From the NCBI GenBank assembly GCA_016203455.1, contig JACQMR010000014.1, positions 6,138-70,137 on the forward strand: 64,000 nucleotides of DNA, read 5' to 3'. This document shows positions 6,520 through 57,433 of the stretch, in pieces (the first letter of the stretch is position 1; each line of letters opens with the position of its first letter). Position numbers and translations under genes: made by a program. Under the pieces are notes generated by a model. That model worked only from the letters and a program-made list of their open reading frames with translations, was not told where the DNA came from and searched no databases. The stretch is from Candidatus Wildermuthbacteria bacterium (GTDB lineage: Bacteria; Patescibacteriota; Minisyncoccia; Minisyncoccales; UBA10102).

Positions 6520-6520
6520 C

Positions 6521-6592: not shown

Positions 6593-6601
6593 CCGCGTCG
6601 T

Positions 6602-6688: not shown

Positions 6689-6689
6689 C

Positions 6690-17570: not shown

Positions 17571-17646
17571 TGGTGGGCCAGAAGGGATTCGAACCCCCAA
17601 CCACCCGGATATAAGCCGGATGCGCTAACCGTTGCGCCACTGGCCC
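17571..17646 (-). tRNA. tRNA-Ile(TAT), with encoded CCA
   Basis: Reverse complement GGGCCAGTGGCGCAAC...TCCGG-CTTATAT-CCGGG...GGTTCGAATCCC...ACCA. Confidence 0.88.
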
Positions 17647-20268: not shown

Positions 20269-20302
20269 CTTAATCCTTAACCCCGTTAAGGTGGGGATAA
20301 CT
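20269..20302. repeat. Half copy of the CCTTAACCCCGTTAAG/DnaA-box palindromic repeat
   Basis: CTTAATCCTTAACCCCGTTAAGGTGGGGATAACT, one mismatch to 25061-25094. Confidence 0.8.
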
Positions 20303-21782
20303 AGGCGGTTTTCGGGTCTGGTGTCTGTTGATCTTTGCGCAGTCCCGCAGAAATAGTAGATATAATCTCTGCAATGTGCGGACGAAGGGTTTCTGAAGAA
20401 GTTGCTATGGATTGGCGGAAGATAAGCTTGAATAAGCTGGGAACATTACCAATAACCGGCTTCCCTGGGCGTGGCATGGAGTCAAGCATAAGAAATTCGG
20501 AATCGTTCTTTATTTCCCATGGGAATGCCTGTTCTCTTTGGAAAGTTAATTCTTTATGTTCCGCGTTAAAAGAATATATGCCAGGGCGCAGAGGGATATT
20601 CATTTTGTATACGCCTTCTCTGGATATAAAGATATGAGAAATGGGTACGCGTTTTTGAAGCGCGGTATTTGCCGAGTTAAAATCAAAGCGATATTCGCCC
20701 GCGAGATGTTCTGCGATGTGGAAAAAATCCATGGGAGGCGTTTCTCTTTCTCCCAATATGCCTAGAGAGTAGATATGCAGGTCTTCCGGGGACTGGGGCA
20801 CGCATTCTTTCGCGTATATGAGCTTTGTTTTTTGATCATACATGAATGAAACGCCAAAGATTCCTTTGTATCCGTTTTTTGCAAGCGTCTCCCCGGTTTT
20901 TTCTACGATATTTCTTGCGGCAAGTTCAATGTTTTCTTCCCAGGAACAAAACCCAAGATCATGCCCAACTTGTAATCCCCCGGGTTCTTTACCGGCGAGC
21001 GTTTCTTTTATATCCATAAGCTGGAGTTGAAGCGAAGAAGAAAGTATGCCTTGACGCGTAACGCACCCTGCCATAAAAAGCGTAAGGCCTTGGAGTATTC
21101 TGGTAATATGCACCTCTTCAAATTTTTGGTTTAGGGAAAGAGCGGTCATCATGTCTTCCCAATCGTCTTCGTTTTGGATGATAAAGGGGGTTTGTTCAAT
21201 GCCGGTATTGGAAAAAGCGCGCTGCACTAGAAAGGGCATTTTATGTTGGTCTATAAATTGTTGAAAGGTATATGCGAGAAACTGTTCTCTGGGTACGCGC
21301 ATGCTCCCCATATTCGGCAGGTGCATACTCCCCAGAAGATTATGAAAGTCGGTTTTAAGCCATACAGCTTGAAATGTTTCTGGCTTATTGCCTATCCATT
21401 CAATGTTTTGCTCCTCAAGTTTTTTAACGATGTCCGGGGTTATTCTGTGAAGAAGTAAACGAACAGGCATTTTTCGCGACTTAAGAAAAGCGTGGAAGGC
21501 GTAGTTTCCAAGAAGATAGCTTGCGGAGTGTATTTTCTCTGCCGCTTTTGGAAACTTTTCTTCCATGCAGAAGATTGAAGAATATCCGTACGCGCGGAGA
21601 ATATCTACATCGGCCGTATCTTTGGCGGTATATATGGTGTAGTTCTGGAGAAAAAAAGAAGGCACAACGCGGGGGTAGGGAACCATGCCAAAACCAATAA
21701 GCGTTTTCTCTTGCATAAGAGAAAGCGTTTCTTTGAGATTTGGCACGATTCTCTGCCATGATGAGGGGAGGTTTGAATGCAT
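20301..21782 (-). CDS. Hypothetical protein, ATP-grasp-like (degenerate)
   Basis: PFLVQ...GYKGIFGVSFM...IYAKECVP resembles the ATP-grasp C-terminal strands. Confidence 0.55.
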   Translation of the reverse strand: MHSNLPSSWQRIVPNLKETLSLMQEKTLIGFGMVPYPRVVPSFFLQNYTIYTAKDTADVDILRAYGYSSIFCMEEKFPKAAEKIHSASYLLGNYAFHAFLKSRKMPVRLLLHRITPDIVKKLEEQNIEWIGNKPETFQAVWLKTDFHNLLGSMHLPNMGSMRVPREQFLAYTFQQFIDQHKMPFLVQRAFSNTGIEQTPFIIQNEDDWEDMMTALSLNQKFEEVHITRILQGLTLFMAGCVTRQGILSSSLQLQLMDIKETLAGKEPGGLQVGHDLGFCSWEENIELAARNIVEKTGETLAKNGYKGIFGVSFMYDQKTKLIYAKECVPQSPEDLHIYSLGILGERETPPMDFFHIAEHLAGEYRFDFNSANTALQKRVPISHIFISREGVYKMNIPLRPGIYSFNAEHKELTFQREQAFPWEIKNDSEFLMLDSMPRPGKPVIGNVPSLFKLIFRQSIATSSETLRPHIAEIISTISAGLRKDQQTPDPKTA

Positions 21783-25060: not shown

Positions 25061-25110
25061 CTTAATCCTTAACCCCGTTAAGGTGTGGATAACTTAAAGG
25101 GGTTAAGGAT
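25061..25110. repeat. Palindromic repeat with a central DnaA-box 9-mer
   Basis: TCCTTAACCCCGTTAAG-GTGTGGATAA-CTTAAAGGGGTTAAGGA. Confidence 0.85.
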
Positions 25111-28864: not shown

Positions 28865-29338
28865 ATGAATATGCGCGAAAGCACGGCAAAGACGATGGTG
28901 GCGGGTGCGTTGGCGCTTTTATTCGCGCTGGCGTTCTTTTCTGTCGCGTCTGCCGAGAATCCGGACGGTTCATGCAGGCCATGTGAAACCGACGCGCAAT
29001 GTCGTGATGGTTTCCAATGCGTAGGAGATACGGATATTACAGACGGCAAAGCCCAGGGGGTATGCCAAAATCCAGACAGTATTGCGATATGCAATCCTTT
29101 GCGGGCCCCCGGTTTTACAGACATTATTAAAAATATCCTTACCATAATTTTTAACCTCGCATTGGTTATTACCCCCGTTATCATTGTTGTTGCCGGAGTC
29201 ATGTTTCTTACCGCCGCCGGAGATCCGGCAAAAATCAGCAAGGCAAAGCAGATGTTGCTGTGGACCGCCGTTGGACTTGTCGTCATTCTTTCTGCGCGCG
29301 GGGTTGCGCTGATTGTGCGCGCGATCATAGGATTTTGA
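28865..29338 (+). CDS. VirB2/TrbC-like pilin protein 1
   Basis: Signal peptide, Cys-rich segment, two C-terminal TM helices joined by AAGDPAKISKAK. Confidence 0.75.
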   Translation: MNMRESTAKTMVAGALALLFALAFFSVASAENPDGSCRPCETDAQCRDGFQCVGDTDITDGKAQGVCQNPDSIAICNPLRAPGFTDIIKNILTIIFNLALVITPVIIVVAGVMFLTAAGDPAKISKAKQMLLWTAVGLVVILSARGVALIVRAIIGF

Positions 29339-29432
29339 CAAGGGCATTTGTATGCTATACTTATGAAAGGTCGTATGTATGATAAGTTTTGAGCGCAGAG
29401 TACTACTTAATAAATATAAATCGTAATTCATA

Positions 29433-29900
29433 ATGAAAAAACTATTGGGAGTTTTGTTAGTAGCAGGTCTTTTTTCTGTAATGGGGTTTTCTAGTGTTTC
29501 CGCTACGATAGGTGTGGAATGTTCAAGCGATGCGGGATGTAATAATGGTGAGTTTTGCGATACCGGTAGCACGCCAAATGTATGCGCGGCAGAAGTGTCG
29601 GGTACTCCCGGCAATCTTAATCAGCCCGCGGATTCTTTGCCGACAACCGGTATTCCCACAAGCGGTACTGACTTGATTGATCGCATTGCTCTTATCGGCA
29701 ATTGGATATTCGCCATCTTTTTGGCAATTTCCGTTATTTACATTGTTCTTGCCGCGTTTGAGTTTGTTACGGGCGCCGGAGATCCGGCAAAGGTGTCCGG
29801 AGCCAGGCAAAAACTCATTTATGCCGCGGTTGGAATTGGCGTGGCTCTGCTTGCCGCCGGAATTGATGACATTGTAAGAAGCATTGTTGTTGGTAGCTAG
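29433..29900 (+). CDS. VirB2/TrbC-like pilin protein 2
   Basis: Same architecture; GAGDPAKVSGARQKL. Confidence 0.75.
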   Translation: MKKLLGVLLVAGLFSVMGFSSVSATIGVECSSDAGCNNGEFCDTGSTPNVCAAEVSGTPGNLNQPADSLPTTGIPTSGTDLIDRIALIGNWIFAIFLAISVIYIVLAAFEFVTGAGDPAKVSGARQKLIYAAVGIGVALLAAGIDDIVRSIVVGS

Positions 29901-29936
29901 CGCACGCCCGCAAAGAGAATATACATTTATGCCTTC

Positions 29937-30317
29937 ATGAAGTTCTCTATTATTAACTTTGCTCTTGGTTTTCTTTTTGCGGGCGTATTTGCTCCTCTCT
30001 CTGTGTTTGGAGATACGCCGACAAACCTGCCTCCAACAAATTTTAGATTCCCCTCCATTAGCAAGCTTCCCGTAACGGGGAGCGATCTTCTTGACAGAAT
30101 AGGCCTTATTGGCAACTGGATATTCGCCATCTTTTTGGCAATCTCCATCATTTACATTGTCCTTGCCGCGTTTGAGTTTGTTACGGGAGCCGGAGAGCCG
30201 GCAAAGGTTTCCGGCGCCAGAATGAAGCTCATCTATGCCGCGGTTGGAATTGGCGTAGCTCTGCTTGCCGCCGGAATTGATGACATTGTAAGAAGTATTG
30301 TCGTGAATACTCCTTAA
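29937..30317 (+). CDS. VirB2/TrbC-like pilin protein 3
   Basis: Same C-terminal module, without the Cys-rich segment. Confidence 0.75.
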   Translation: MKFSIINFALGFLFAGVFAPLSVFGDTPTNLPPTNFRFPSISKLPVTGSDLLDRIGLIGNWIFAIFLAISIIYIVLAAFEFVTGAGEPAKVSGARMKLIYAAVGIGVALLAAGIDDIVRSIVVNTP

Positions 30318-30346
30318 TGGCTGTTTGCATGGAGATGATCATACAT

Positions 30347-31006
30347 ATGGCATATCGTAAAAAGATAAACGCAGTCATTCTTGGTATTGGTTTGCTTATT
30401 TCTTTGGCTGGCATTCCATTTAGTGCATTCGGATTAGCGGAGACGACAAATGTGTTTTTTACGTCCTGCGAGGTTTCAGATACTACTGCTCTCCCCCAAT
30501 GCACTGGGGGTCTGGTGTGTGAACCTTTTGAAGGAACATCTCGTTGCCTCTTGGTAATTGGGGCGTCTTGTGGTACTGATAAACCGGTATGTCAAAGTGG
30601 TTCTCGGTGCGTTGTTAAGGAAACTGGAGCTGATCTTGATGAATCCGGGGGGACTACGGCAGAAAGCGGTGATAATGAATGTCGTGTAGGGAGTTCTGCC
30701 GGCCCAGGTCCAGGAGGCGGTTTGCCAGGCGGCAATTTTAGATTGCCAAACGAAACCGAGATCCCCATCTCTGGCACGGCCCTTTTGGAAAAAGTGGGCG
30801 TGATTGGCAACTGGGTTTTCGCCATATTTCTTGCCATTTCTCTTATCTACATTATTCTTGCCGCGTTTGAGTTTGTTACGGGCGCAGGAGAACCCACCAA
30901 AGTTTCAGGAGCAAGGCAAAAACTCATTTATGCCGCGGTTGGAATTGGCGTGGCCCTGCTTGCCGCCGGAATTGATGACATTGTAAGAAGCATCGTTACC
31001 ACATAA
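30347..31006 (+). CDS. VirB2/TrbC-like pilin protein 4
   Basis: Same C-terminal module with a longer Cys-rich region; the start could be 30317. Confidence 0.75.
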   Translation: MAYRKKINAVILGIGLLISLAGIPFSAFGLAETTNVFFTSCEVSDTTALPQCTGGLVCEPFEGTSRCLLVIGASCGTDKPVCQSGSRCVVKETGADLDESGGTTAESGDNECRVGSSAGPGPGGGLPGGNFRLPNETEIPISGTALLEKVGVIGNWVFAIFLAISLIYIILAAFEFVTGAGEPTKVSGARQKLIYAAVGIGVALLAAGIDDIVRSIVTT

Positions 31007-31014
31007 AGAGCCGC

Positions 31015-31482
31015 ATGAAGATGAGAGGTTTATTTGCGATTGTCGCTTTGTTTGGGATATTGATGGCGGCCGGGAGCGTTGGTTTGCCGCAATCTGTTTT
31101 TGCGGCTGGGCTAGTTACGGAAGGCGGTGAGTGCTCAAGGGCCGCGGGTGCGGTTGATGCGGAAAAGTGCGCGGAAGGTCTTGTATGCATTGGAGGCACC
31201 GATACCGCTCCAGGCGAATGTTTGCCCGAGTTGCCGGAGGGTCCACAAACCCCCGGGGAGGTGTTAGATACCATTGAGGTTATCGCGAACTGGGTGTTTG
31301 CAATTTTTCTTGCCGCATCGGTTATTTTTCTTGTATGGGGGGCGTTTGAATTTATGCTGGCGCAGGGAGATCCCGCAAAGATTTCCGCCGCCAAACAGCG
31401 GCTTCTATACGCGGTTGTGGGCATTGGACTTGCAATGCTCGCGAATGGCGTAGACGATATATTGAGAAGCATTCTTACCTAA
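31015..31482 (+). CDS. VirB2/TrbC-like pilin protein 5
   Basis: Same architecture; AQGDPAKISAAKQRL. Confidence 0.75.
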   Translation: MKMRGLFAIVALFGILMAAGSVGLPQSVFAAGLVTEGGECSRAAGAVDAEKCAEGLVCIGGTDTAPGECLPELPEGPQTPGEVLDTIEVIANWVFAIFLAASVIFLVWGAFEFMLAQGDPAKISAAKQRLLYAVVGIGLAMLANGVDDILRSILT

Positions 31483-39764: not shown

Positions 39765-41945
39765 TTATTCCATGTGGAGCCGTTCTCTGTAATGTTGCGT
39801 GATTTCTTTGAGCAAGGGATGGCGCGCCAAAGAAATATCGCTGTCCAGAACTGATTTTGCCGCTTCCCTTGCTTTTGCCACAAGCTTAAGATTGGTGAGA
39901 TTTGCCATGGCAAAATCGGGAATCCCCCACTGTTTGGTTCCGGCAAAGTCCCCCGGCCCCCTTAATTGCAGGTCTTTTTCCGCAAGGAGAAATCCGCTGT
40001 TTGACTCAACAAGGGCGCGCAGGCGCGCTTGGGTTTGGGCGGATCTGGACTCTGTAAACAAAAAGCAGTATGACTGATGGTCTGATCTCCCCACCCTTCC
40101 CCTAAACTGGTGGAGTTGAGCCAGCCCAAAACGGTCAGCGCCCTCTATCATCATGACGCTCGCGTTGGGGATATCCACGCCCACTTCAACCACCGAGGTT
40201 GAAACCAGTATGTCTGTTTTTCCGCGCTTGAATTTTTTCATAACTTCTTCTTTCTCTCTCGCGGGCATTTTTCCGTGAAGCATGGCGACGCGCAGTTCCG
40301 GAAACACTTCTTTCGCGAGTTTCTCGTATTCTTCTTTCACTGTTTTTATTTCTGTTACTGGTTGCGTGTTATTTGTGGAGGGTTCTATCCTTGGGCAGAT
40401 TACAAAAACCTGTCGTCCTTTTTCAACTTCTTTTTTCATGAATACATAAGCGGCGCCGCGGTCTTTGGGAGCTATGACTTTGGTTTCTATGGGTTTTCTT
40501 CCTATTGGGAGTTCGTCTATAACCGTGGGGTCTAAATCCCCGTACAGCGTCATGGCGAGAGTTCTGGGTATGGGGGTCGCGGTCATGGAAAGAAAATGAG
40601 GAGTTAAGATAGTTTGCTTGCCCCGAGCTTTGTCGAGGGGTAGTTTGCTTGCCCCGAGCTTTGTCGAGGGGTAGTTTGCTTGCCCCGAGCTTTGTCGAGG
40701 GGTAGTTTGCAGGTGGGCTCTTTGCCTAACTCCAAAGCGGTGCTGTTCATCTACCACCACAAGGGCAAGGTTGGAAAATCGCACTTTGTCTTGTATGAGG
40801 GCGTGCGTGCCAATGAGGATGTCTATGGCCCCTTCTTTTGCTTTTTGGAGGAGTTTGGCGCGCGAGATTTCAATGGAATCGTTTGGGAGTTTGGGAGATA
40901 TGAACAGGTCGGAAGATCCGGTGAGCAGGCCAATGGTCGCCTTGAAAGGAGCAAGAGAGGAGCCAATGGTTTTGAAATGCTGGCGCGCCAAAATTTCAGT
41001 GGGCGCGAGGAACGCGGCCTGAAAGCCGGCTTTCACGCACGCGAGAGCGGCCATGGCCGCCACGACGGTTTTGCCTGATCCCACATCGCCCTGCAATATC
41101 CGGTTCATGGGCCTGGGTTTTTCCATGTCTTTAAGAATGAGCCACGCGGCTTTTTTTTGGCCGTCCGTAAGGGTAAACGGGAGTTTCGCGATAAATCGCT
41201 TCATCATGTCTACGGACAATGGGATGGACGGCGCTTTGATCTCCGCGAGTTTTTTTCGTTCCGTGAGTATGAATAATGAAATATAAAAAAGTTCTTCAAA
41301 TGAAAAGCGTTCTCTCGCGAGATCCGCCTGTTTTTGAGAGTCGGGAAAATGGACTTGCCGCAGAGCGGCGGCAAACGGCAAGAGATTGCATTCTTTTTGA
41401 ACGGATTGAGGCAGAGCGTCCTCCAGAGCATTTCCAATCGCGTTAAGAATTGAGTGGATGATAAATCGGAGCCATTTTGAAGACACTCCCTTTGTCTCCG
41501 CGTACACGGGAGCGATACGCCCTATATGAATGGGGCTGGGGCCTTCTTTTTCATGCGCGGGGTTAGACACAAAAATTCCGGTTTTGTCCCGGAGCACTTT
41601 GCCGCAAAGCAATATTTTTTCGCCGGCCCCGAATGTTTGCGCCAGATACGGCTGATTGAGCCATACGACGCGCGCGCTTCCGGTCGCGTCAGAAAATATC
41701 CCTTCAACCACGGACACCTGCTTTATGAATGTTCTTTTTTCTTGAACATTTGCGATCGTGCCGGAAAGGCAGAATTCCTTGCCCTCCGTAATCTTTGAAA
41801 CGGGGGTAATGACGGACAGGTCCCGGTATGTTTTGGGAAAATGAAACAAGAGATCTCGCGCCGTTAAAATTCCCATGCCTTTCAGCCGTTTTTGATACAC
41901 CGGCCCCACGCGGGGTACTTCAGATAGAGGAGATGAAAGGTTCAT
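39765..41945 (-). CDS. recG: ATP-dependent DNA helicase RecG
   Basis: QGDVGSGKT, DEQHRFG, MTATPIPRT, QFRGRVGR and DLQLRGPG motifs. Confidence 0.96.
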   Translation of the reverse strand: MNLSSPLSEVPRVGPVYQKRLKGMGILTARDLLFHFPKTYRDLSVITPVSKITEGKEFCLSGTIANVQEKRTFIKQVSVVEGIFSDATGSARVVWLNQPYLAQTFGAGEKILLCGKVLRDKTGIFVSNPAHEKEGPSPIHIGRIAPVYAETKGVSSKWLRFIIHSILNAIGNALEDALPQSVQKECNLLPFAAALRQVHFPDSQKQADLARERFSFEELFYISLFILTERKKLAEIKAPSIPLSVDMMKRFIAKLPFTLTDGQKKAAWLILKDMEKPRPMNRILQGDVGSGKTVVAAMAALACVKAGFQAAFLAPTEILARQHFKTIGSSLAPFKATIGLLTGSSDLFISPKLPNDSIEISRAKLLQKAKEGAIDILIGTHALIQDKVRFSNLALVVVDEQHRFGVRQRAHLQTTPRQSSGQANYPSTKLGASKLPLDKARGKQTILTPHFLSMTATPIPRTLAMTLYGDLDPTVIDELPIGRKPIETKVIAPKDRGAAYVFMKKEVEKGRQVFVICPRIEPSTNNTQPVTEIKTVKEEYEKLAKEVFPELRVAMLHGKMPAREKEEVMKKFKRGKTDILVSTSVVEVGVDIPNASVMMIEGADRFGLAQLHQFRGRVGRSDHQSYCFLFTESRSAQTQARLRALVESNSGFLLAEKDLQLRGPGDFAGTKQWGIPDFAMANLTNLKLVAKAREAAKSVLDSDISLARHPLLKEITQHYRERLHME
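40610..40710. repeat. Perfect 31-nt tandem repeat (3 copies + 8 nt) inside recG
   Basis: TAGTTTGCTTGCCCCGAGCTTTGTCGAGGGG at 40610, 40641 and 40672, then TAGTTTGC. Confidence 0.95.
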
Positions 41946-42025: not shown

Positions 42026-42103
42026 ATGAGTCGGTTATATCATATATCCGCAGGGAGTTCCACATTTGAAAATATACGAGAAATGAGATATACATATGTT
42101 CAA

Positions 42104-42121
42104 GGAGAGGTGGCTGAGAGG
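42104..42121 (+). pseudogene. Duplicated 5' fragment of tRNA-Ser(GCT)
   Basis: GGAGAGGTGGCTGAGAGG is identical to 42227-42244. Confidence 0.7.
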
Positions 42122-42226
42122 GTTGAACGGAAGCGAGCGCCCCGTTCAACGGGAATCAAAAGATTCCCGGGCGGCCTATCAGCACAATTTTTATCCGCTC
42201 TTGTTGCACAAGAGCATTATAGTAAT

Positions 42227-42313
42227 GGAGAGGTGGCTGAGAGGCCGAAAGCGGCACGCTGCTAATGTGTTAGGGGAGAAATCCCCTCGTGGGTTCGAAT
42301 CCCACCCTCTCCG
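42227..42313 (+). tRNA. tRNA-Ser(GCT)
   Basis: GGAGAGG/CCTCTCC acceptor, anticodon GCT, long variable arm. Confidence 0.95.
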
Positions 42314-42314
42314 C

Positions 42315-42555
42315 CTTCGCTCGCCGAAGCGGCGAGCTACGGCGGACGCAGTCCGCCAGTAGATCGTCGCGAAGGCGGGCTTCGGCCTGGCTACGCCAAA
42401 TGGCTATGCCATGGCGAGCGGACGCAGTCCGCTAGAAGCCCCGAACTTTGCGAAGGCGGGCTTCGCCACGCCGAAGCGACGAGCTACGGCCTGGCTACGC
42501 CAAATGGCTATGCCATGGCGAGCGGACGCAGTCCGCCAGTAGATCGTCGCGAAGG
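42315..42555 (+). repeat. tRNA-Ser-associated modular hairpin repeat array (locus B)
   Basis: Units at 42315, 42380 and 42461; ends 17 nt before the GIY-YIG ATG. Confidence 0.9.
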
Positions 42556-42572
42556 AGAGATTCGTAAAAATT

Positions 42573-42809
42573 ATGTACACCGTCTATATTCTGAAATGTG
42601 CCGATGGAAAACCCTACACCGGTTGTACTGAAAATCTTGAAGAAAGATTGGAGCGTCATAATAATGGATATGTACCAGCAACGGAGAATCTACGCCCCAT
42701 AGAACTCGTTACTCATATAGTTTTCAGCGACAAATATAAAGCTTTTGAATTTGAGAAGTATCTAAAATCAGGATCTGGCCGAGCGTTCTTAAGCAGGCAT
42801 TTAATCTGA
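42573..42809 (+). CDS. Small stand-alone GIY-YIG nuclease
   Basis: YTVYIL...YTGCT..LEERLERHN...EKYLKSGSGRAFL. Confidence 0.9.
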   Translation: MYTVYILKCADGKPYTGCTENLEERLERHNNGYVPATENLRPIELVTHIVFSDKYKAFEFEKYLKSGSGRAFLSRHLI

Positions 42810-42850
42810 AAAGTGATAAAATGTAAGAATCTTGAAGGAATCCGAACTAT

Positions 42851-43264
42851 ATGAAAATAGGCATAATTGGAAGCATGCAATATACAGAGAAAATGCTTGA
42901 AGCTCGTGACGAGCTTATTAAGCGTGGGCATGATGCGTTTGTGACGAATCTTGCCTCTCCTTTCGTTGGCAAGACTGACGAAGAGAAAGAGAAAATAAAA
43001 ATAGATCAGAAAAATAACTTAGACGCTATCCGAGAATTTTGGCGTCTCATGCAGGGTGCCGATGCAGTCTTGGTTATGAATTTTGATAAATATGGAGTCA
43101 AAAACTATATTGGCGGAAACACTCTCATGGAAATAGGATTCGCCCATGTTCTAGATCAAAAAGTATTTTTATACAATCCAATCCCTGAAATTCCTTATTA
43201 CAAGTCTGAGATTGAGGCAGTAAAGCCAGTGATAATCAATGGTGATTATTCTTTAGTGAAATAA
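42851..43264 (+). CDS. Hypothetical protein, nucleoside 2-deoxyribosyltransferase-like fold
   Basis: KIGIIGSM...ADAVLVMN...YIGGNTLMEIGFA. Confidence 0.65.
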   Translation: MKIGIIGSMQYTEKMLEARDELIKRGHDAFVTNLASPFVGKTDEEKEKIKIDQKNNLDAIREFWRLMQGADAVLVMNFDKYGVKNYIGGNTLMEIGFAHVLDQKVFLYNPIPEIPYYKSEIEAVKPVIINGDYSLVK

Positions 43265-43364
43265 CTATGGCAAAATCAAAGACAATCAAAAAGCATCTTG
43301 GTATCTCGCCAGAATGTCTGGTAGGGCCGTCCTATTGGTTCAAAGTTCCGGGCATCGCCACTGC

Positions 43365-43408
43365 CTTCGCCACGCTGAAAACTATGCCCTGCTGAAAGCG
43401 GGCTTCGC
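43365..43408 (+). repeat. Terminal module of the tRNA-Ser repeat element
   Basis: CTTCGCCACGCTGAAAACTATGCCCTGCTGAAAGCGGGCTTCGC, near-identical to 6911-6953 and 46701-46744. Confidence 0.88.
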
Positions 43409-43440
43409 TTTTTATCCCCCTTAAATGTTTGGGTTACTTG

Positions 43441-43469
43441 GTAAACTTAGTTAAAATAAGTTTACGCGC
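43441..43469. repeat. 29-bp palindromic repeat, left of the RibD-like gene
   Basis: GTAAACTTAGTTAAAATAAGTTTACGCGC; 27/29 identical to 44279-44307. Confidence 0.8.
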
Positions 43470-43485
43470 GCCTTGAAATAAATTT

Positions 43486-44181
43486 ATGAAAAGACCATAC
43501 ACAACATTGTTTCTGTTGGTTTCGGTAGACGGGAAAATTTCTACCGGAGATACCGATATTATGGATATTGATAAGGATTACAAACTTATTAATGGAGTTA
43601 AAGAGGGCAATAAGCAGTACTACGATCTTGAACAGCAGACCGATTTATATTCTCTCAATTCTGGGAGAGTTTTTGAAAAGATTGGGATGAATGAAAAAAC
43701 GGATGAGCCGCAGAAAACTCCCGTGAGTTTCATTGTTATTGATAATAAGCCCCATTTGAATAAAAAGGGCACGACTTACTTAGCAAAGAAAAGTAAGACA
43801 CTTTATGTCGTTACAACGAATCCTGATCATCCGGCTTTTGAACTTAAAAAAGAATTCCCTAACATTGAAATACTTAAATACGAGGGAAAAATTGATTTAG
43901 CGGATACGCTTAAAAAACTGAAACAGGAGTACGGCGTTGACCGCATTACAATCCAAACTGGTGGCACAATGAACGCCTCGTGGGTTCGCGAGGGGTTGAT
44001 TGATAGGTTGTTGCTTGTGGTTGCTCCCGCTATGGTTGGCGGTAAAGATACCTCTACTTTAATGGATGGCGAATCATTACATTCCGAAGATGAACTTTTC
44101 AAAATAAAATCGCTTGAACTTGTTCAAGCAAAGCCATTGGAAAATTCATATTTGCTTTTAGAGTACAATGTCAAAAACTGA
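43486..44181 (+). CDS. RibD C-terminal/dihydrofolate-reductase-like protein
   Basis: SVDGKI...IQTGGTMN...GLIDRLLLVVAP motifs. Confidence 0.8.
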   Translation: MKRPYTTLFLLVSVDGKISTGDTDIMDIDKDYKLINGVKEGNKQYYDLEQQTDLYSLNSGRVFEKIGMNEKTDEPQKTPVSFIVIDNKPHLNKKGTTYLAKKSKTLYVVTTNPDHPAFELKKEFPNIEILKYEGKIDLADTLKKLKQEYGVDRITIQTGGTMNASWVREGLIDRLLLVVAPAMVGGKDTSTLMDGESLHSEDELFKIKSLELVQAKPLENSYLLLEYNVKN

Positions 44182-44278
44182 AAAATAAGTATGGATGTTC
44201 CAGCGTAACGCCATACCTTGACGCGCAAATTGGTTTTGGTTGTCAAAAACTCAACGAACAATATGCAAAAAATGGAGC

Positions 44279-44307
44279 GTAAACTTAGTAAAACTAAGTT
44301 TACGCGC
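44279..44307. repeat. 29-bp palindromic repeat, right of the RibD-like gene
   Basis: GTAAACTTAGTAAAACTAAGTTTACGCGC. Confidence 0.8.
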
Positions 44308-44576
44308 CACCCAACCCCACCCGCTCGCCTCGCCTGCCCGCAGAAGTTTCAACGCAGGCGGGGCCCAGCCAGTGGAAAAACTAAATCCGATGTAGTTTTG
44401 CGCTTTGAGCTTGCATTGTATTATAAGAGTGTAATTATGTATAATAAGAGCGCAAGCTCTTCTCTCTTAGAAATTGATTTGCCTTAGTTGCGGATAAGGA
44501 GCATATGTTTTTCTTTTAACCTGTATTTCCAAGCAAGAAACCAATATAGTGTAAGAATTCTGGAAAAGGTTGAGCT

Positions 44577-45170
44577 ATGGACGAAAAAACAATACAAACT
44601 TACAATCAAATGGCAAAAGAGTACGATGACGAGACCATCGACTTTTGGCAAAAATTTCCTAGAACATTTTTTGACAAATTCGCGGCGCTTGTAAAAGGCA
44701 AGGTACTGGATGTTGGAAGCGGGCCAGGAAGAGACGGTCTTCTGCTCCAAGAGAGAGGACTTGAAGTGATATGTCTCGATGCCTCCGAAGCGATGGTTAA
44801 TCTTTGTAAAGAAAAAGGACTGCAGTCGGTGGTTGGAGATTTCATCTCCATGCCGTTTGAGGATAATTCGTTTAATGGTGCATGGGCGTACACATCGCTT
44901 CTTCATGTTTCAAAGGCAGACATATCTCGTGCCTTGAATGAAATACGCAGGGTGTTAAAGGATGGGGGGATTTTCGGATTGGGCATGATAGAAGGAGATA
45001 CAGAAGAGTACAGAGAGAGTGCGGGTGTGAATATGCCGCGATGGTTTAGTTTTTATCGGAAAGAAGAATTGGAGAAGTTGCTGGAAAACCACGGTTTTCG
45101 GGTTTTATATTTTGAGGAACTTAAGCCCCGCGCCAAAAACTATCTGCATTTTATTACTCAAAAGCAATAG
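44577..45170 (+). CDS. Class I SAM-dependent methyltransferase
   Basis: VLDVGSGPGRD and WAYTSLLH motifs. Confidence 0.88.
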   Translation: MDEKTIQTYNQMAKEYDDETIDFWQKFPRTFFDKFAALVKGKVLDVGSGPGRDGLLLQERGLEVICLDASEAMVNLCKEKGLQSVVGDFISMPFEDNSFNGAWAYTSLLHVSKADISRALNEIRRVLKDGGIFGLGMIEGDTEEYRESAGVNMPRWFSFYRKEELEKLLENHGFRVLYFEELKPRAKNYLHFITQKQ

Positions 45171-45481
45171 GCAGTAGTTTTCAGCCGCTGGGTAGTGTCG
45201 CTATAATCGGCATGAGCGCGATTATTCCCAATATGAAGCTGAAAACCGCGAATTTTGACAGAGGTCTGTGTGATTGGTTTAGCATATTTTCATTATATCA
45301 TAATATCATATTGTGCTCCCGGCCTTTCTAGAACTTACTTTGCCTAATCTGTTCTGAAAAGTGATAAAATGTAAGAACCCCGAAGGGAACAGAATGCCAT
45401 TTGTGGTGTCCGCCCGTAGTTCTTGACGGGCGCGAAGAAGCGTGAGAGTATATGATTGTAATACAAATAACTACATTCCTT

Positions 45482-45700
45482 ATGCGTTCTATTGTTAATA
45501 TTTCTCTTCCGCGCGAACTCAATAAAATTGTGGAACGGTTAGCAAAGAAAGGGAATTATGCCACGAAAAGCGAATTTTTACGCGAGGTGATCCGCGAGAG
45601 AATCGAGGAAGAAAATGTACTTTCCCAGATTCAAAAAAGCGAGGTTGAATTTAAAACAGGCAAGGGCAAAGTATTGCGTTCATTAAAGGAGCTTCGTTGA
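45482..45700 (+). CDS. Ribbon-helix-helix antitoxin
   Basis: IVNISLP...KSEFLREVIR RHH pattern, upstream of a RelE-like gene. Confidence 0.8.
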   Translation: MRSIVNISLPRELNKIVERLAKKGNYATKSEFLREVIRERIEEENVLSQIQKSEVEFKTGKGKVLRSLKELR

Positions 45701-45713
45701 ATCTGTTCTTTGA

Positions 45714-45977
45714 ATGGAAATTCTTTACTCGCCGGAGTTTAAGCGAAGATACCAGCGACTCTCCCCTCTCGTTAAGAAAAGAGCCGAAGCAAAAGAAAGA
45801 GTTTTTCGCAAAGATCCTTTTCATCCCCAACTCAAAACCCATAAACTGCGCGGGCGTTTGGATAATTTTTGGGCATTTTCTGTTGATTATCAGTTCCGCA
45901 TTGTCTTTGCATTTTTTGGAGAGAAAGAAGTGCGATTTTACGCGATAGGAGATCATTCGCTTTATAAGAAATTTTAG
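45714..45977 (+). CDS. RelE/ParE-superfamily (YafQ-like) toxin
   Basis: FKRRY...LKTHKLRG...SVDYQFRIVF...IGDH. Confidence 0.85.
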   Translation: MEILYSPEFKRRYQRLSPLVKKRAEAKERVFRKDPFHPQLKTHKLRGRLDNFWAFSVDYQFRIVFAFFGEKEVRFYAIGDHSLYKKF

Positions 45978-46056
45978 AGCGGTACGGTAAAAAATGTGTG
46001 AGCTTTTAGCGCGGTGTGTCTTGCGTTTTGGGTAAAATGTCTGTACAAGGGAAGCT

Positions 46057-46434
46057 ATGAGAGCAAACTACACCAAAACCTACCACATTATCTTTGACGC
46101 TTTTGGGGTGGCAAAAGAGCTGTTAAACAGCGAGGAGTTCGCGTTAAAGATTCTTTTGGAAGTTCCAAAACTCATCGGCATGAAAATTCTTTCCGGGCCC
46201 AATTTGGTGCGGGATTACGACCGGGGGCATGAGGGAGTTACCGGATTTGCCATTGTGGATTTTTCCCATGTTTCTTTGCATACTTTTGTGGCAACGCAAG
46301 AAATTTTTCTGGATATATTTTCATGCAAGCCGTTTGACTACGCGGCCGTGAGAGAGTATTTATACGGCGCGTTGCGGGTGAATCCGGATCAGGTGGAAAC
46401 GGTTGAGGTTGCGTATCCGTGGGAAAAAGAATAG
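46057..46434 (+). CDS. S-adenosylmethionine decarboxylase-like pyruvoyl proenzyme
   Basis: GVTGFAIVDFSHVSLHTF...LDIFSCKPFD. Confidence 0.7.
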   Translation: MRANYTKTYHIIFDAFGVAKELLNSEEFALKILLEVPKLIGMKILSGPNLVRDYDRGHEGVTGFAIVDFSHVSLHTFVATQEIFLDIFSCKPFDYAAVREYLYGALRVNPDQVETVEVAYPWEKE

Positions 46435-46443
46435 TTAATGAAG

Positions 46444-46530
46444 GGAGGGGTGCCTGAGTGGTTGAAAGGGACAGTCTTGAAAACTGTTAGGGGCGCAAGT
46501 TCCTCGTGAGTTCGAATCTCACCCCCTCCG
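46444..46530 (+). tRNA. tRNA-Ser(TGA)
   Basis: GGAGGGG/CCCCTCC acceptor, ACAGT-CTTGAAA-ACTGT. Confidence 0.95.
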
Positions 46531-46531
46531 C

Positions 46532-46744
46532 CTTTGCTCGCCGAAGCGGCGAGCTACGGCGGACGCAGTCCGCCAGTAGATCGTCGCGAAGGCGGGCTTC
46601 GCCCGCCGAAGCAAAGCTTCGTCGGGCTTCGGCCTGGCTACGCCAAATGGCTATGCCATGGCGAGCGTGACGCAGTCCGCAGTAGATACGCGAAGGCGGG
46701 CTTCGCCATGCTGAAAGCTACGCCCTGCTGAAAGCGGGCTTCGC
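46532..46744 (+). repeat. tRNA-Ser-associated modular hairpin repeat array (locus C)
   Basis: Units at 46532, 46597, 46627 and 46701; the first unit is near-identical to 42315-42379. Confidence 0.9.
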
Positions 46745-46749
46745 CGATC

Positions 46750-56383: not shown

Positions 56384-56435
56384 AATTTCCTTAACCCCGT
56401 TAAGTTATCCACACCTTAACGGGGTTAAGGAAATT
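56384..56435. repeat. Perfect 21-bp inverted repeat flanking a DnaA-box 9-mer
   Basis: AATTTCCTTAACCCCGTTAAG-TTATCCACAC-CTTAACGGGGTTAAGGAAATT. Confidence 0.9.
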
Positions 56436-56506: not shown

Positions 56507-57433
56507 ATGGAATATATTATTGTAGGAACGGTGTTTTTGTTTGGTCTTGCCGCAGGGAGTTTTTTGAACGCGTTTTTGTACAGAATGGCGCTGGCGGACG
56601 GGTTAGAAAATGGCCCGAAAGACGCAGAAACGAGCATATCAAAAGGCAGATCGTATTGTCCCAAGTGCGGGCACAAGCTTTCCTGGCAAAACCTTATTCC
56701 CCTTGTAAGTTTTGTTTTGCTGGGCGGGAAATGCGGACATTGCAAAAAACCAGTTTCTTTTCAGTACCCTTTGGTTGAATTGGCCGTTGGCCTGGTATTC
56801 CTGCTTGCTTGGTATCTTGCCGCTTCCGGTGAAGTTATCCACACCTTAACGGGGTTAAGGATTGGGTATTTGGCGGCTGTGGGGAGTTTGCTGATTGGGA
56901 TTTTTGTCTATGATTTGAAGCACTTTATTATTCCCGATAAGCTTATTTTCTCCGCGATTGGCCTGGCAGTACTTTGGAGAATCTTTGAGTTTTTGTTTGC
57001 CCTGACCAGCGTGGAAGGGTGGCTTGAACCCTGGGATTTCATTAGAAATTTTGAATTAGGAATTAGAAATTCCGCCCTTTTTATAAATCCATTGGCAAGC
57101 GCTTTGGGAGCGTCCTTTTTCTTTCTTTCTATCTATGTTTTGTCAAAAGGGCGGGCTATGGGCTTTGGCGATGTAAAGCTGGCGTTTTTCATGGGTCTGT
57201 TTTTGGGCTGGCCGAATATCCTTGTCGCTTTATTTTTTGCCTTTTTCTTGGGCGCTGTGGCCGGTGTTTTTCTGATACTGCAAAAAAAGAAGGGCTGGAG
57301 ATCGCAAGTTCCTTTTGGCCCGTTTCTCGTAGCGGGCGTTCTTTTCGCGCTGCTGTTTGGGGATACACTCGCGCGTTTATATCTTTCCTTGATTGGCTGG
57401 CAGGTGTATAATGATGTAATAATAATTTTATAA
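56507..57433 (+). CDS. pilD: Prepilin peptidase
   Basis: GSFLN, RSYCPKC...GKCGHC, YDLKH, GFGDVKL and VPFGPFL motifs. Confidence 0.93.
   Translation: MEYIIVGTVFLFGLAAGSFLNAFLYRMALADGLENGPKDAETSISKGRSYCPKCGHKLSWQNLIPLVSFVLLGGKCGHCKKPVSFQYPLVELAVGLVFLLAWYLAASGEVIHTLTGLRIGYLAAVGSLLIGIFVYDLKHFIIPDKLIFSAIGLAVLWRIFEFLFALTSVEGWLEPWDFIRNFELGIRNSALFINPLASALGASFFFLSIYVLSKGRAMGFGDVKLAFFMGLFLGWPNILVALFFAFFLGAVAGVFLILQKKKGWRSQVPFGPFLVAGVLFALLFGDTLARLYLSLIGWQVYNDVIIIL

Follow-up and report, generated by a model that had tools for sequence, protein, structure and literature searches.

We identify a specific association between the 3' end of a tRNA-Ser gene, a hairpin unit and a gene for a small GIY-YIG protein, which is conserved far beyond the genome in which we describe it first. 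The reading that we favor, at a probability of about 55%, is that the hairpin and the gene form a small selfish, homing-like element residing at tRNA 3' ends, mainly those of tRNA-Ser. Such an element would comprise two parts: a strand-specific rod hairpin of ~60 nt that abuts the last base of the tRNA and repeats that tRNA's final 6-7 bases near its apex, where they pair with their complement, and a gene for a single-domain GIY-YIG protein of 76-80 amino acids, apparently transcribed by read-through from the tRNA.

The window, by which we mean the whole 64,000-nucleotide stretch analyzed here, contains 16 tRNA genes identified by ARAGORN. Three of them encode tRNA-Ser (cga, 6602-6690; gct, 42227-42315; tga, 46444-46532), and all three end in CTCCGCC and lead directly into TT(C/T)G and GC-rich hairpin units. 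The features of the three loci are listed below with the basis of each assignment.

42227-42315, plus strand: intact tRNA-Ser (anticodon GCT) ending in CTCCGCC with no encoded CCA, the attachment point of array B (ARAGORN; Rfam tRNA model, L001).
42316-42560, plus strand: array B, three hairpin units at 42316-42380, 42381-42461 and 42462-42560 (sequence; repeat families D2, D9 and D10; restriction to three loci).
42561-42572, plus strand: A/T-rich leader from the last unit to the start codon (sequence).
42573-42809, plus strand: gene for a predicted 78-aa stand-alone GIY-YIG nuclease of the tRNA-Ser-linked subfamily (Pfam PF01541; alignment A1).
42823-42847, plus strand: conserved 25-nt motif between the nuclease stop codon and the next start codon, close to both (pattern search).
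42851-43264, plus strand: 137-aa ORF, possibly of nucleoside 2-deoxyribosyltransferase or Maf-like type (protein atlas lead).
43267-43395, plus strand: 42-codon frame that extends into the terminal module (tblastn, 83% over 18 aa).
43364-43408, plus strand: terminal module of locus B, counterpart of the modules closing arrays A and C (alignment A3; terminator scan).
6602-6953, plus strand: tRNA-Ser (CGA) at 6602-6690, ORF-less array A at 6691-6910 and terminal module at 6911-6953 (ARAGORN, repeat families, blastn-short, alignment A3).
46444-46744, plus strand: tRNA-Ser (TGA) at 46444-46532, ORF-less array C at 46533-46700 and terminal module at 46701-46744 (ARAGORN, repeat families, blastn-short, alignment A3).

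The units of array B are 65, 81 and 99 nt long. Each starts with TTCG, ends with GCGAAGG(C/A)G, and contains the tail-copy hairpin GGCGGAC-GCA-GTCCGCC (for example at 42341-42357); units 2 and 3 also hold a nested 33-nt palindromic module, which is found at the same point in four units altogether. The tRNA and array B together fold with -187.7 kcal/mol (z = -7.05 against 100 shuffles), and unit 1 adopts a rod-like fold of -47 kcal/mol (z -4.98). Arrays A and C consist of 3-4 units each and contain no ORF. The first unit of array C is identical to unit 1 of array B at 64 of 65 positions (98.5%), while the tRNA-Ser genes in front of these two units are only 75% identical. The closing modules of the three loci (A, 6911-6953; B, 43364-43408; C, 46701-46744) align with 35 invariant columns of about 45 (alignment A3); upstream of the module, A and C share a unit end, and B has unrelated sequence. 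Spurious ORFs are called across the GC-rich arrays in the window.

We searched the surrounding assembly (519 kb, 15 contigs, 35 tRNA genes) with blastn-short, using four array pieces against the 15 contigs, and obtained 79 HSPs. Matches are confined to array A (6690-6953), array B (42316-42566), the displaced module (43331-43420) and array C (46533-46746), apart from five chance-sized matches of 13-23 nt elsewhere in the assembly. No GC-rich unit follows any of the 13 remaining tRNA genes of the window or any of the rest of the 35 in the assembly. ARAGORN, blastn-short, Pfam and the module alignment thus bear out what the first-pass annotation had observed: three tRNA-Ser genes that run straight into one hairpin family shared with no other tRNA of the window, a terminal module that closes A and C and is displaced at B, and a 78-aa GIY-YIG nuclease at B. 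Its comparison with REP/RAYT systems fared less well; unlike dispersed REPs, the units are few, occur at three tRNA-Ser loci only in the 519 kb, and are bound to tRNA genes. No GC-rich unit accompanies the fourth tRNA-Ser of the genome, gga, which lies outside the window at G000:C11:6864-6949; this gene has AT-rich hairpins and GIY-YIG genes of another subfamily on both sides. Small GIY-YIG genes adjoin tRNA genes in five of six cases in this genome, and at 14 of 22 examined loci in relatives.

The ORF at 42573-42809 matches the Pfam GIY-YIG family (PF01541) over residues 1-68 with an E-value of 2.5e-13 and 50.6 bits (cut-off 22.6). This is the protein's only Pfam domain; the chain ends 10 residues past it, with no separate DNA-binding domain. 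NCBIfam and PHROGs returned no match. The protein has at least 551 relatives and is strongly conserved, with Y5, Y15, R25, H29 and E61 invariant in alignment A1. Three of these, Y5, Y15 and E61, align with Y6, Y17 and E64 of an ortholog of SsnA, the mutation of which in SsnA is reported in the main text of the Ssn study to abolish cleavage (PMC11893778). The 94-aa SsnA ortholog used here came from another Neisseria representative genome, the search of two commensal Neisseria genomes having returned only UvrC and a YhbQ-like protein. In hhalign comparisons, alignment A1 matches this ortholog with a probability of 69% (E 4.4e-5, 25% identity) and a YhbQ-like UPF0213 protein with a probability of 89% (E 2.1e-6), which would place the protein about equally far from both. 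The best sequence matches among solved structures are UPF0213/YhbQ-like, namely PDB 1zg2 (E 1.3e-10) and 1ywl (E 1.7e-5). We take the protein to be a probable nuclease on the strength of its domain and catalytic positions; its substrate, discussed below, is likewise proposed from sequence.

The last unit of array B ends in GAAGGAGAG, which is Shine-Dalgarno-like, and neither a promoter-like nor a terminator-like site was found between the tRNA and the nuclease ORF at locus B. The only plus-strand terminator-like hairpin with a T-run in 42030-43500 lies at 43388-43402, inside the terminal module. Downstream of the nuclease gene, TGATAAAAT, an extended -10-like sequence, precedes the 25-nt motif. 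The exact degenerate pattern of this motif has a single site in the genome, and the motif recurs at the same position after the nuclease gene in loci L004, L015 and L046 despite a differing next gene. The 137-aa ORF that follows at locus B had been annotated as an NDT-like part of the element. It has no match in Pfam, NCBIfam or PHROGs; in a protein atlas its clusters are automatically named "Maf-like", with a nucleoside 2-deoxyribosyltransferase cluster only at rank 29 (score 0.92), so that "NDT-like" is a lead only. Since none of the other nuclease loci holds a homolog, we rejected the ORF as conserved cargo and take it to be local cargo or a neighbor outside the conserved element. L046 has, in the equivalent position, a Fic-like ORF whose beginning matches residues 1-18 of the 42-codon frame at 43267-43395, which is probably what is left of a truncated gene. 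Pfam scans of selected ORFs between 39.8 and 47.4 kb and of the ORF at 6966-7334 beside array A returned no integrase or transposase domain, in line with the earlier statement that none lies nearby.

We examined the association across genomes in the 80 best loci of the subfamily, drawn from Patescibacteria and Bacteroidota. A tRNA-Ser gene lies on the same strand 52-371 nt upstream of the nuclease gene in 55 of these 80 loci (gct 20, tga 14, gga 12, cga 8, act 1), and another tRNA gene is found there in seven more (Asp in three, and Trp, Ala, Pro and Glu in one each). Nine loci have no tRNA upstream despite at least 500 nt of sequence, and nine are cut by a contig end. Setting aside those cut by a contig end, 62 of 71 loci sit behind a tRNA, against a chance expectation of ~0.2%, and most of the nine loci without one keep a tail-plus-TTCG junction or a tRNA 3' fragment. 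Gene and tRNA share a strand in all 62 tRNA-adjacent loci, a count that is partly set by our selection of same-strand tRNAs; a listing of the nearest tRNA showed no closer one on the opposite strand. One carrier, the soil bacterium Niastella soli strain MAH-29 (locus L044), is in culture. The proposed co-occurrence of tRNA-Ser and GIY-YIG genes therefore holds in 55 of 80 loci.

The spacers between tRNA and ORF share a common design. TT(C/T)G at the tRNA end opens 55 of the 62 spacers, and 52 of 62 contain a hairpin whose 3' strand matches the last 6 nt of the adjoining tRNA, compared with 0 of 62 upstream stretches of equal length and 3 of 62 reversed spacers. At all seven non-Ser loci the apex is changed to fit the locus's own tRNA; L042 and L085 show the Asp-type and Pro-type versions. 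The first-pass annotation had missed the tail copy and its complement inside the hairpin. Five of six units fold as one long rod, and the helices are backed by compensatory changes, with the observed covariation reached in 0 of 500 shuffles. From the MAFFT alignment, RNAalifold recovered only part of the consensus (13 pairs), owing to misalignment 3' of the apex; the covariation was accordingly counted in the named helices, leaving the middle stem out of the count. Within the rod helices G.T pairs outnumber A.C pairs 17 to 2, which identifies the folded strand as the tRNA-sense strand. This strand bias would suit an RNA structure no less than single-stranded DNA.

The units might act at the level of RNA, as structured 3' trailers of the tRNA-Ser precursor, with a GIY-YIG gene that merely exploits tRNA transcription and with arrays that are terminator-like leftovers. 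Their role could be that of a processing signal, a stabilizer at the 5' end of the downstream mRNA once RNase Z has cleaved, or an anti-tail switch between the real tail and its copy. Several features speak for such a role besides the strand bias: one and the same 5' strand has two pairings that exclude each other and that both covary, pairing of the anti-tail with the real tRNA tail is possible in 99% of cells, and the 3' strand of the outer stem overlaps the Shine-Dalgarno-like GAAGGAG. The lack of a promoter or terminator between tRNA and ORF points the same way, as does the shared strand of gene and tRNA, with the selection noted above. We nevertheless consider this explanation unlikely. 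The ORF-less arrays A and C, with their 3-4 units, have no obvious use as an mRNA element; solo units are also seen away from tRNA genes and in two genomes for which the search gave no nuclease gene; the duplicated tRNA 3' ends around the ORF, described below, are DNA events; and the patchy distribution speaks against a conserved feature of tRNA processing. The spacer also has no matching Rfam family: a search of eight loci against Rfam 15 at E-values up to 1 returned tRNA models and sub-threshold chance matches only.

The distribution of the gene and its hairpin is patchy. Among 301 genomes of the order, the nuclease gene is present in 43 (14%), in 31 of 200 genera, with one to three copies each. 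The strict apex motif occurs in 11 of the 301 genomes, nine of which have the gene (Fisher p 5e-7, with relatives that are not independent); it is missing from 34 of the 43 gene-bearing genomes, so that the motif is narrow and the co-occurrence one-sided. Four of 15 strict apex sites lie away from a tRNA, and a few non-tRNA units keep the tail-TTCG junction. Any match to array B is found in 5 of 40 relatives, and none of 18 tRNA-Ser 3' flanks from ten of those relatives has such a unit. The inference that enzyme-carrying and empty forms coexist stands: genome G002 has one ORF-less and two loaded tRNA-Ser loci, and two genomes in which our search found no gene hold solo units.

Other traces are consistent with movement. 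The 62 labeled rows of the protein tree require at least 29 changes of tRNA label (shuffled mean 36); this 78-column tree is poorly resolved, only 5 of its 76 branches being starred. The data do not establish repeated transfer between phyla: under the AU test, a tree with the Bacteroidota in one clade remains acceptable (p 0.76) and even scores higher. In three loci the ORF is bracketed by direct repeats that begin in the T-loop or acceptor arm of the tRNA, namely L074 (90 nt, 92%), L088 (54 nt, 96%) and L062 (21 nt, exact), at a spacing of 342-384 nt, and shorter tail copies lie 41-56 nt past the stop codon in L018 and L034. An 11-nt tail copy is present within 1200 nt downstream of the ORF in 7 of 62 loci, as against 3 of 62 in the upstream control; tail duplications overall span 6 to 90 nt. 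Decayed copies of the gene also exist: L062 has an in-frame stop codon, and G301 a TAA.

Two simple routes of insertion fit these data poorly. A plain target-site duplication is an ill-fitting account of the tail copy because in most loci that copy precedes the ORF, on the tRNA side, and is embedded in a helix whose covariation extends over it; integration of a circle recombining at the tail predicts an order of parts different from the one observed. Parts of the window are contained in seven DNA sequencing runs from three studies, and no RNA run was listed among the matches. The contigs of four runs contained no empty or alternative allele of locus B, and assemblies of the runs break inside the arrays. 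The expected comparison of filled and empty sites therefore yielded loaded and ORF-less loci within G002 but no insertion or excision polymorphism in those contigs. An apparent skip from 42420 to 43365 was rejected as an excision joint: it reflects cross-mapping to array C, with which 33 letters are identical.

The variation among arrays raises the question of transposition proper, of the REP/RAYT kind suggested at the outset, in which the GIY-YIG protein would be a true transposase that excises single units and re-inserts them at tRNA-Ser ends via a single-strand intermediate. In REP/RAYT and IS200/IS605 systems, HUH Y1 transposases act on single-strand hairpins. The loci described here share with them strand-specific hairpin repeats accompanied by one small nuclease gene, ORF-less copies that outnumber loaded ones, and mosaic arrays; arrays differ in unit number and composition, the 33-nt palindrome is nested at the same point in four units, and a few units off tRNAs keep the tail-TTCG junction. 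They differ in having no HUH enzyme, a tRNA-end target, another catalytic chemistry, and repeats that are not dispersed in the genome (three loci in 519 kb). To our knowledge GIY-YIG enzymes cut hydrolytically, and we know of no covalent intermediate for strand transfer in this superfamily. Terminal inverted repeats and target duplications of fixed length were not seen in these loci, the tail duplications ranging from 6 to 90 nt. We judge transposition of this kind very unlikely.

The nearest published precedent is the Ssn/NTS system, comprising SsnA of Neisseria meningitidis and the cd10448 family (Chenal et al., Nat Commun 2025, PMC11893778). As described in the main text of that study, Ssn proteins are single-domain GIY-YIG nucleases for single-stranded DNA that are paired with hairpin repeats and cut a few bases upstream of the hairpin, and SsnA/NTS is proposed to restrict incoming single-stranded DNA in Neisseria (PMC11893778). 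Its authors compare the NTS-ssnA-NTS arrangement with IS200/IS605 and REP/BIME, the same analogy as the REP/RAYT-like one weighed above (PMC11893778), so that with this precedent the idea of a GIY-YIG enzyme in place of an HUH enzyme beside hairpin repeats is not wholly new. Going by that text, the likeness extends to a small single-domain protein (94 aa in SsnA and 78 aa here, in a class of up to 150 aa) with the same three catalytic positions, and to a gene next to oriented repeats that form hairpins and accompany it from genome to genome, in an architecture whose IS-like and REP/RAYT-like character the authors note. The differences lie in the repeats. The hairpin described here falls outside the published SRM search pattern, and a different hairpin family flanks the gene; the pattern given in the Methods of PMC11893778 has one match in the window (19276-19309, unrelated) and five in the 519 kb, against a shuffle mean of 0.45 per window. 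Our repeats are also few, tied to tRNA 3' ends, and copy the tail of the neighboring tRNA. The word "tRNA" does not occur in the main text of PMC11893778, whose supplementary homolog lists could include members of the subfamily. We found no published description of the tRNA link or of the tail-matched hairpin.

A host may also have domesticated an Ssn-like system of this kind, keeping nuclease and hairpins to police recombination or DNA uptake at tRNA loci with no current selfish spread. The shared protein class, single-domain architecture and catalytic positions would fit, as would the oriented hairpin repeat beside the gene, the strong conservation of the protein in at least 551 relatives, and Bacteroidota copies that may form one clade. 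Against it stand the numbers: three arrays per genome, compared with the hundreds of NTS copies in Neisseria given in the abstract of PMC11893778, and a gene carried by only 14% of the order's genomes. Moreover, the published SRM pattern has no match near the gene, and the switches between isoacceptors, the pseudogenes and the duplicated tRNA ends are in keeping with a selfish life cycle. We consider domestication quite unlikely.

For the selfish, homing-like element that we favor, GIY-YIG homing endonucleases provide the other comparison. Typical homing GIY-YIG enzymes carry a DNA-binding domain, which is absent from the 78-aa protein. This counts against the selfish reading and makes sequence-specific homing by such a protein a conjecture. 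Likewise, tblastn at 1e-5 found no homolog of the nuclease in a phage collection of 50,697 records or in a plasmid collection, leaving the element with no known vector, which also counts against it. Compared with the Seg/I-TevI type, the 78-aa ORF lacks the separate DNA-binding domain, but shows sporadic presence at a fixed target (43/301 genomes; 62/71 loci) and a pattern expected of flank co-conversion (98.5% identity in unit 1 against 75% in the tRNA). In phage T4, the available text on SegB describes a free-standing GIY-YIG homing endonuclease gene among tRNA genes that promotes its own inheritance and that of flanking tRNA-region DNA by cutting the rival allele (PMC2330249). The likeness, as far as that text goes, is a GIY-YIG nuclease gene lodged among or by tRNA genes; the difference is that SegB is a phage protein, whereas the protein described here has no homolog in the 50,697 phage records. 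We know of no cognate hairpin or tail copy for SegB. Integrative islands targeted to tRNA genes are tyrosine-integrase elements that restore the tRNA 3' end; like them, our loci keep an intact tRNA at one junction and have a displaced tRNA 3' copy at the far side in L062, L074 and L088, but they have no integrase and an inserted segment of only ~0.35 kb. UPF0213/YhbQ-like proteins share the minimal single-domain architecture and give the best solved-structure matches; we found no report in the literature of tRNA linkage or a cognate hairpin for them, and the available text of a 2006 survey of the GIY-YIG superfamily mentions tRNA only for a methyltransferase fusion (PMC1564403).

We propose that the nuclease recognizes its own hairpin on the single-stranded tRNA-sense strand, which could be exposed as the non-template strand of a heavily transcribed tRNA gene, during replication, or upon DNA uptake. 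It would cut near the junction of tRNA and hairpin, much as cleavage by the related Ssn enzymes falls a few bases 5' of their hairpin, and recombination repair or gene conversion would then copy the element into other tRNA-Ser genes in a homing-like manner. Loss of the ORF would leave solo hairpin units, and arrays like A and C would accumulate through repeated events. The apex that matches the tail may either define the target tRNA or be regenerated at each insertion. Overall, the interpretation of the first-pass annotation survives in its link between tRNA-Ser, hairpin and GIY-YIG gene and in its loaded and ORF-less forms, with repeats that are bound to tRNA-Ser rather than genome-wide and a tail-matched hairpin in 52 of 62 tRNA-adjacent loci; the NDT-like gene drops out of the element. 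None of the computational outcomes that the first-pass annotation had named as refuting its proposal was observed.

A bolder proposal, which we put forward tentatively as rather unlikely, is that the 6-7-nt tail/anti-tail at the apex is a nucleic-acid specificity module that aims the nuclease at one tRNA gene by base complementarity, so that a change of apex retargets the element. The variants in which Ser has given way to Asp, Pro, Ala, Glu or Trp suggest such retargeting. Patescibacteria and Bacteroidota would then share a new class of tRNA-gene parasite, a DNA-guided homing system of ~350 bp that is programmable by nature.

If our favored reading is correct, the most reduced bacterial genomes known, of ~0.5-1 Mb, would carry a dedicated tRNA-gene parasite that at ~350 bp is among the smallest protein-coding mobile units. 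This would account for the small GIY-YIG genes that adjoin tRNA genes in such genomes (5/6 here and 14/22 in relatives), and the GC-rich arrays behind tRNA-Ser would be annotated as remains of the element and not as genes. With a carrier in culture, Niastella soli MAH-29, the reading is open to testing at the bench. The Ssn principle of a single-domain GIY-YIG protein with a cognate single-strand hairpin would extend to a hairpin that tracks a cellular target sequence, suggesting a route to easily retargeted nucleases for single-stranded DNA.

ARAGORN places 16 tRNA genes in the window, which corresponds to G000:C9:6138-70137 of its own assembly (G000; 519 kb, 15 contigs, 83% complete). Three of these encode tRNA-Ser, and all three end in ...CTCCGCC with no encoded CCA and run directly into TT(C/T)G and a series of GC-rich hairpin units:

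6602-6690, tRNA-Ser cga, followed by array A
42227-42315, tRNA-Ser gct, followed by array B
46444-46532, tRNA-Ser tga, followed by array C

Searching all contigs with four pieces of the arrays (blastn-short) returned only the three arrays and one displaced module, besides five matches of 13-23 nt; array-type matches are thus limited to these three loci. No GC-rich units were found behind its other 32 tRNA genes (blastn-short, 15 contigs). Array B comprises units of 65, 81 and 99 nt, followed by a 12-nt A/T leader, a 78-aa ORF, a 25-nt conserved motif, a 137-aa ORF, a 42-codon remnant and, last, the 44-nt module that directly closes arrays A and C. The 78-aa ORF encodes a GIY-YIG domain (Pfam, E 2.5e-13). 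These searches bear out the first-pass annotation, which had described three unit-bearing tRNA-Ser genes, a displaced module and a nuclease gene at locus B, and had distinguished this loaded locus from the ORF-less A and C. Pfam assigned the neighboring ORFs to RecG, a RibD_C protein, two methyltransferases, an AdoMet decarboxylase and a DUF4446 protein, and found no match for one 101-aa frame; among these scanned ORFs we found no integrase or transposase, as that annotation had stated.

Several further features lie in the window. Four units across the three arrays each carry, at one and the same point inside the anti-tail (the complement of the tRNA's last bases), a nested 33-nt palindromic module that begins CCTGGCTACGCC and is apparently a second small insertion carried by the first:

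6832-6894, stretch with the nested module
42376-42438, stretch with the nested module
42480-42542, stretch with the nested module
46623-46685, stretch with the nested module

Mechanical ORF lists contain frames crossing tRNAs and hairpin arrays at 42289-42542 and 6466-6879 (e.g., 6466-6879, 137 aa), which are almost certainly not genes. The RecG ORF (39765-41945, minus strand) carries three perfect, in-frame tandem copies of a 31-nt GC-rich repeat (40610-40710), which add a repeated peptide between helicase motifs. A 44-nt palindromic element with core TTATCCACA and flanking arms TCCTTAACCCCGTTAAGG occurs four times (20274-20317, 25066-25109, 56388-56431 and 56818-56861); we take the core to resemble a DnaA box. 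Four diverged tandem copies of a 238-nt segment (29162-31478, 60-85% identity) are apparently paralogous small genes. ARAGORN also identifies a tRNA-Ile with anticodon TAT (17571-17646), whose ortholog is present in the relative G015 (L134). Finally, tRNA-Ser gct and tga lie 4.2 kb apart here (42316-46056 compared) versus ~550-750 nt in G001 (L098) and G002 (L010), where the intervening ORF of G002 resembles the AdoMet-decarboxylase-like gene at 46057-46434. The surplus sequence includes not only the nuclease but also the 137-aa ORF, a RibD_C gene and a methyltransferase, so the insertion behind tRNA-Ser gct may be larger than the nuclease alone.

The association with tRNA-Ser extends to other genomes. 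With the nucleotide sequence of array B as query, five of 40 relatives gave matches, and in G008, G025 and G002 these abut tRNA-Ser (gct, cga, gga and gct, plus a displaced unit behind tga), with a 76-97-aa nuclease ortholog 3' of the unit at four of these five places. Using an alignment of five nuclease proteins, we identified at least 551 stretches encoding relatives of the nuclease (one genome per species searched), the best 80 of which come from Patescibacteria and Bacteroidota records. A same-strand tRNA-Ser lies 52-371 nt upstream (median 98 nt) in 55 of these best 80 (gct 20, tga 14, gga 12, cga 8, act 1), against a chance expectation of ~0.2% for a position this close behind tRNA-Ser. 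Co-occurrence with tRNA-Ser 3' ends, Ser-gga included, holds in these loci. Another tRNA is upstream in seven loci (Asp in three; Trp, Ala, Pro and Glu), nine have none despite at least 500 nt of upstream sequence, and nine lie less than 500 nt from a contig end. By sequence reading, most of the 18 loci with no called tRNA keep the tail-plus-TTCG junction (the tail being the tRNA's last 6-7 bases) or the 3' portion of a tRNA that is truncated where the contig stops.

The hairpin copies the tail of the tRNA that it follows. A canonical unit opens with TTCG, continues with one strand of a 6-nt stem, GAA, a middle stem and the apex GGCGGAC-NNA-GTCCGCC, and closes with return strands ending GCGAAGG(A/C)G.., followed by the A/T leader and ATG. 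In the apex, the tRNA's final 6-7 bases recur as the 3' strand, opposite a complementary 5' strand. The TT(C/T)G junction is present in 55 of the 62 loci adjacent to a tRNA, and in 52 of the 62 the 3' strand of a hairpin reproduces the six terminal tRNA bases (≤1 mismatch), compared with 0 of 62 stretches of equal length taken 5' of the tRNA and 3 of 62 reversed spacers; L020 and L029, counted among the 52, appear to match by chance through a CTTCGC stem. Moreover, the apex is altered to the tail of its own tRNA in all seven non-Ser loci (e.g., GACCGCC for Asp, GCCCGAC for Pro, CTCCACC for Ala), and two tRNA-Ser genes with variant tails have matching apex variants (L083 and L037, the latter despite the resulting stem mismatch). 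We found no published description of a tail-copying hairpin, or of bacterial tRNA-linked GIY-YIG genes, in our searches of open-access literature.

Five of six units fold into a single elongated rod interrupted by a 3x3 GAA/GAA internal loop (z -2.9 to -5.8; the sixth, z -1.45). We aligned 23 first units, leaving out L074, whose spacer is a different, terminator-like hairpin. Pairing holds in 89-96% of cells for the outer stem and apex of the rod, for an alternative local hairpin and for an outer TTCG/CGAA helix, compared with only 31-50% in slid controls; compensatory changes occur in the counted helices, and 0 of 500 shuffles reached the observed covariation. Because the alternatives share one 5' strand, these counts do not choose among them. 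The rod helices contain 17 G.T and two A.C pairs; the strand that folds is therefore the tRNA-sense one, whether this is RNA or non-template DNA. Were it RNA, the unit could act as a trailer or switch, a reading we hold as a minority possibility. RNAalifold also pairs the real tRNA tail with the anti-tail, and Rfam returned no match for the unit. Between tRNA and ORF we found no promoter-like or terminator-like site, the sole plus-strand terminator-like site in a scan of locus B being in the terminal module; the nuclease would thus be expressed by read-through from the tRNA promoter.

The best solved-structure matches of the nuclease are UPF0213 proteins (1zg2, E 1.3e-10). SsnA is described as a 94-aa single-domain GIY-YIG enzyme that binds a hairpin repeat solely as single-stranded DNA, on one strand only, cleaves a few bases upstream of the hairpin, and requires Y6, Y17 and E64 for cleavage; repeats flank ssnA in an IS-like manner, which its authors liken to IS200/IS605 and REP/BIME (PMC11893778). 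A 94-aa SsnA ortholog that we obtained has all three residues, matched in our five-protein alignment by Y5, Y15 and E61 (hhalign, E 4.4e-5). A YhbQ-like protein aligns about equally well (E 2.1e-6), and the SRM hairpin pattern of PMC11893778 occurs here at background level. We therefore liken the element to Ssn/NTS in the outline of its working, with a hairpin of a different kind and a place in cd10448 that is no more than possible. The Ssn family is the closest functional precedent; the other near analogue is phage T4 SegB, a GIY-YIG homing enzyme inside a tRNA cluster. The proposed novelty of pairing hairpin repeats with a GIY-YIG enzyme is partly anticipated by Ssn/NTS. The link to tRNA genes, the matching of hairpin to tail and the occurrence in two phyla appear not to have been described before.

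Within the order, the nuclease subfamily occurs in 43 of 301 genomes, 31 of 200 genera and 35 of 248 high-quality genomes, in 1-3 copies each (E ≤1e-20, a specific threshold, since own-genome paralogs score no better than 4.7e-15). A strict apex motif yields 15 sites in 11 of 301 genomes, compared with three sites for a reversed control; nine of these 11 genomes have the nuclease gene versus 34 of 290 others (Fisher p 5e-7; relatives are not independent). By reading, 11 of the 15 sites lie behind tRNA-Ser or directly before the nuclease gene, those in G240, G166:C37 and G185 being placed by adjacency to the gene only. Of seven solo sites that we retrieved, three lie behind tRNA-Ser; the other four, of which two keep the CCGCC/TTCG junction, are without a tRNA within 500 nt. 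No unit was seen at 18 tRNA-Ser 3' flanks of ten relatives, and CCA is encoded at seven of these 18.

Several loci bear signs of mobility. Between arrays B and C, unit 1 agrees at 64 of 65 positions while their tRNAs are 75% identical, suggesting recent copying within the genome. Direct repeats of the tRNA end, starting in its T-loop or acceptor arm and spaced 342-384 nt, bracket the ORF in L074 (90 nt, 92%), L088 (54 nt, 96%, whole unit included) and L062 (21 nt exact, then an apparent native terminator). Shorter tail copies are found at a distance of 41 nt from the stop codon, on its 3' side, in L034 and of 56 nt in L018, another lies 3' of the ORF in G002, and in L017, L051 and L075 other sequence separates the intact tRNA from a displaced tail, unit and ORF, suggesting further insertions. 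Decay appears as an in-frame stop in L062 and a TAA in G301. On a weakly resolved 79-protein tree (78 columns), the 62 rows that carry a tRNA label require no fewer than 29 label changes, a sign of isoacceptor switching, compared with a mean of 36 and a minimum of 30 for shuffled labels. Counting against mobility, an 11-nt tail copy lies within 1200 nt downstream in only seven of 62 loci and upstream in three. An AU test does not reject a single Bacteroidota clade (p 0.76), leaving repeated exchange between phyla unsupported. We found no copies in phage or plasmid records and no empty allele in sequencing-run contigs compared with the locus. True transposition is highly improbable in our estimate, and a domesticated Ssn-like function, which the matched residues would allow, is unlikely.

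We consider the best explanation, at a probability of roughly 0.55, to be a hairpin-binding nuclease spread among tRNA-Ser genes by recombinational repair. The nuclease would bind its own rod hairpin on the tRNA-sense strand while this is single-stranded and cut near the tail/TTCG junction; repair would then carry unit and ORF to other tRNA-Ser genes, and loss of the ORF would leave solo units and arrays. The tail/anti-tail apex may either set the target or be a by-product of insertion. The core of the original proposal stands, namely a hairpin/GIY-YIG element bound to tRNA-Ser that occurs both loaded and empty; its mechanism is conjectural, and the NDT-like 137-aa ORF does not hold up as its cargo gene.

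Stand-alone GIY-YIG genes of other subfamilies also adjoin tRNA genes. In the own genome, five of six Pfam GIY-YIG matches lie beside a tRNA (3' of tRNA-Thr, 5' of tRNA-Ala and flanking tRNA-Ser gga), and displaced tRNA halves adjoin the tRNA-linked genes. The stretches covered outside the window are:

G000:C14:1-520, tRNA-Ala 5' half before a GIY-YIG ORF flanked by a perfect 15-nt inverted repeat; intact tRNA-Ala and two tRNA 3' halves after
G000:C5:22450-22980 (minus strand), GIY-YIG ORF beginning 2 nt after tRNA-Thr, then a tRNA-like 3' fragment
G000:C11:6500-7300, tRNA-Ser gga with a GIY-YIG gene before and a truncated one after
G000:C7:5350-5950, also covered

An AT-rich counterpart of the unit, two A/T-rich hairpins of which the second ends in a tail-like ..CCGCC and then TTC, lies behind some tRNA-Ser genes (L098, G001:C1:62150-63350; L115; G000:C11:6950-7035; L055), with a GIY-YIG gene next after it in G001, G000:C11 and L055. 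A search of 25 relatives gave 71 GIY-YIG matches, including the six of G000, with loci for 30; we left out eight with frames >300 aa (UvrC-like). Among the remaining 22, which include L113 and L131 of G000, a same-strand tRNA lies within ~300 nt in 14 (Gln, Ala, Asp, Glu, Gly, Ile, Ser, Pro); the other eight comprise six without one and two at contig ends. Given these other-subfamily genes beside tRNAs, the tRNA-Ser element appears to be the most clearly marked example of a wider GIY-YIG habit of residing beside tRNA genes.
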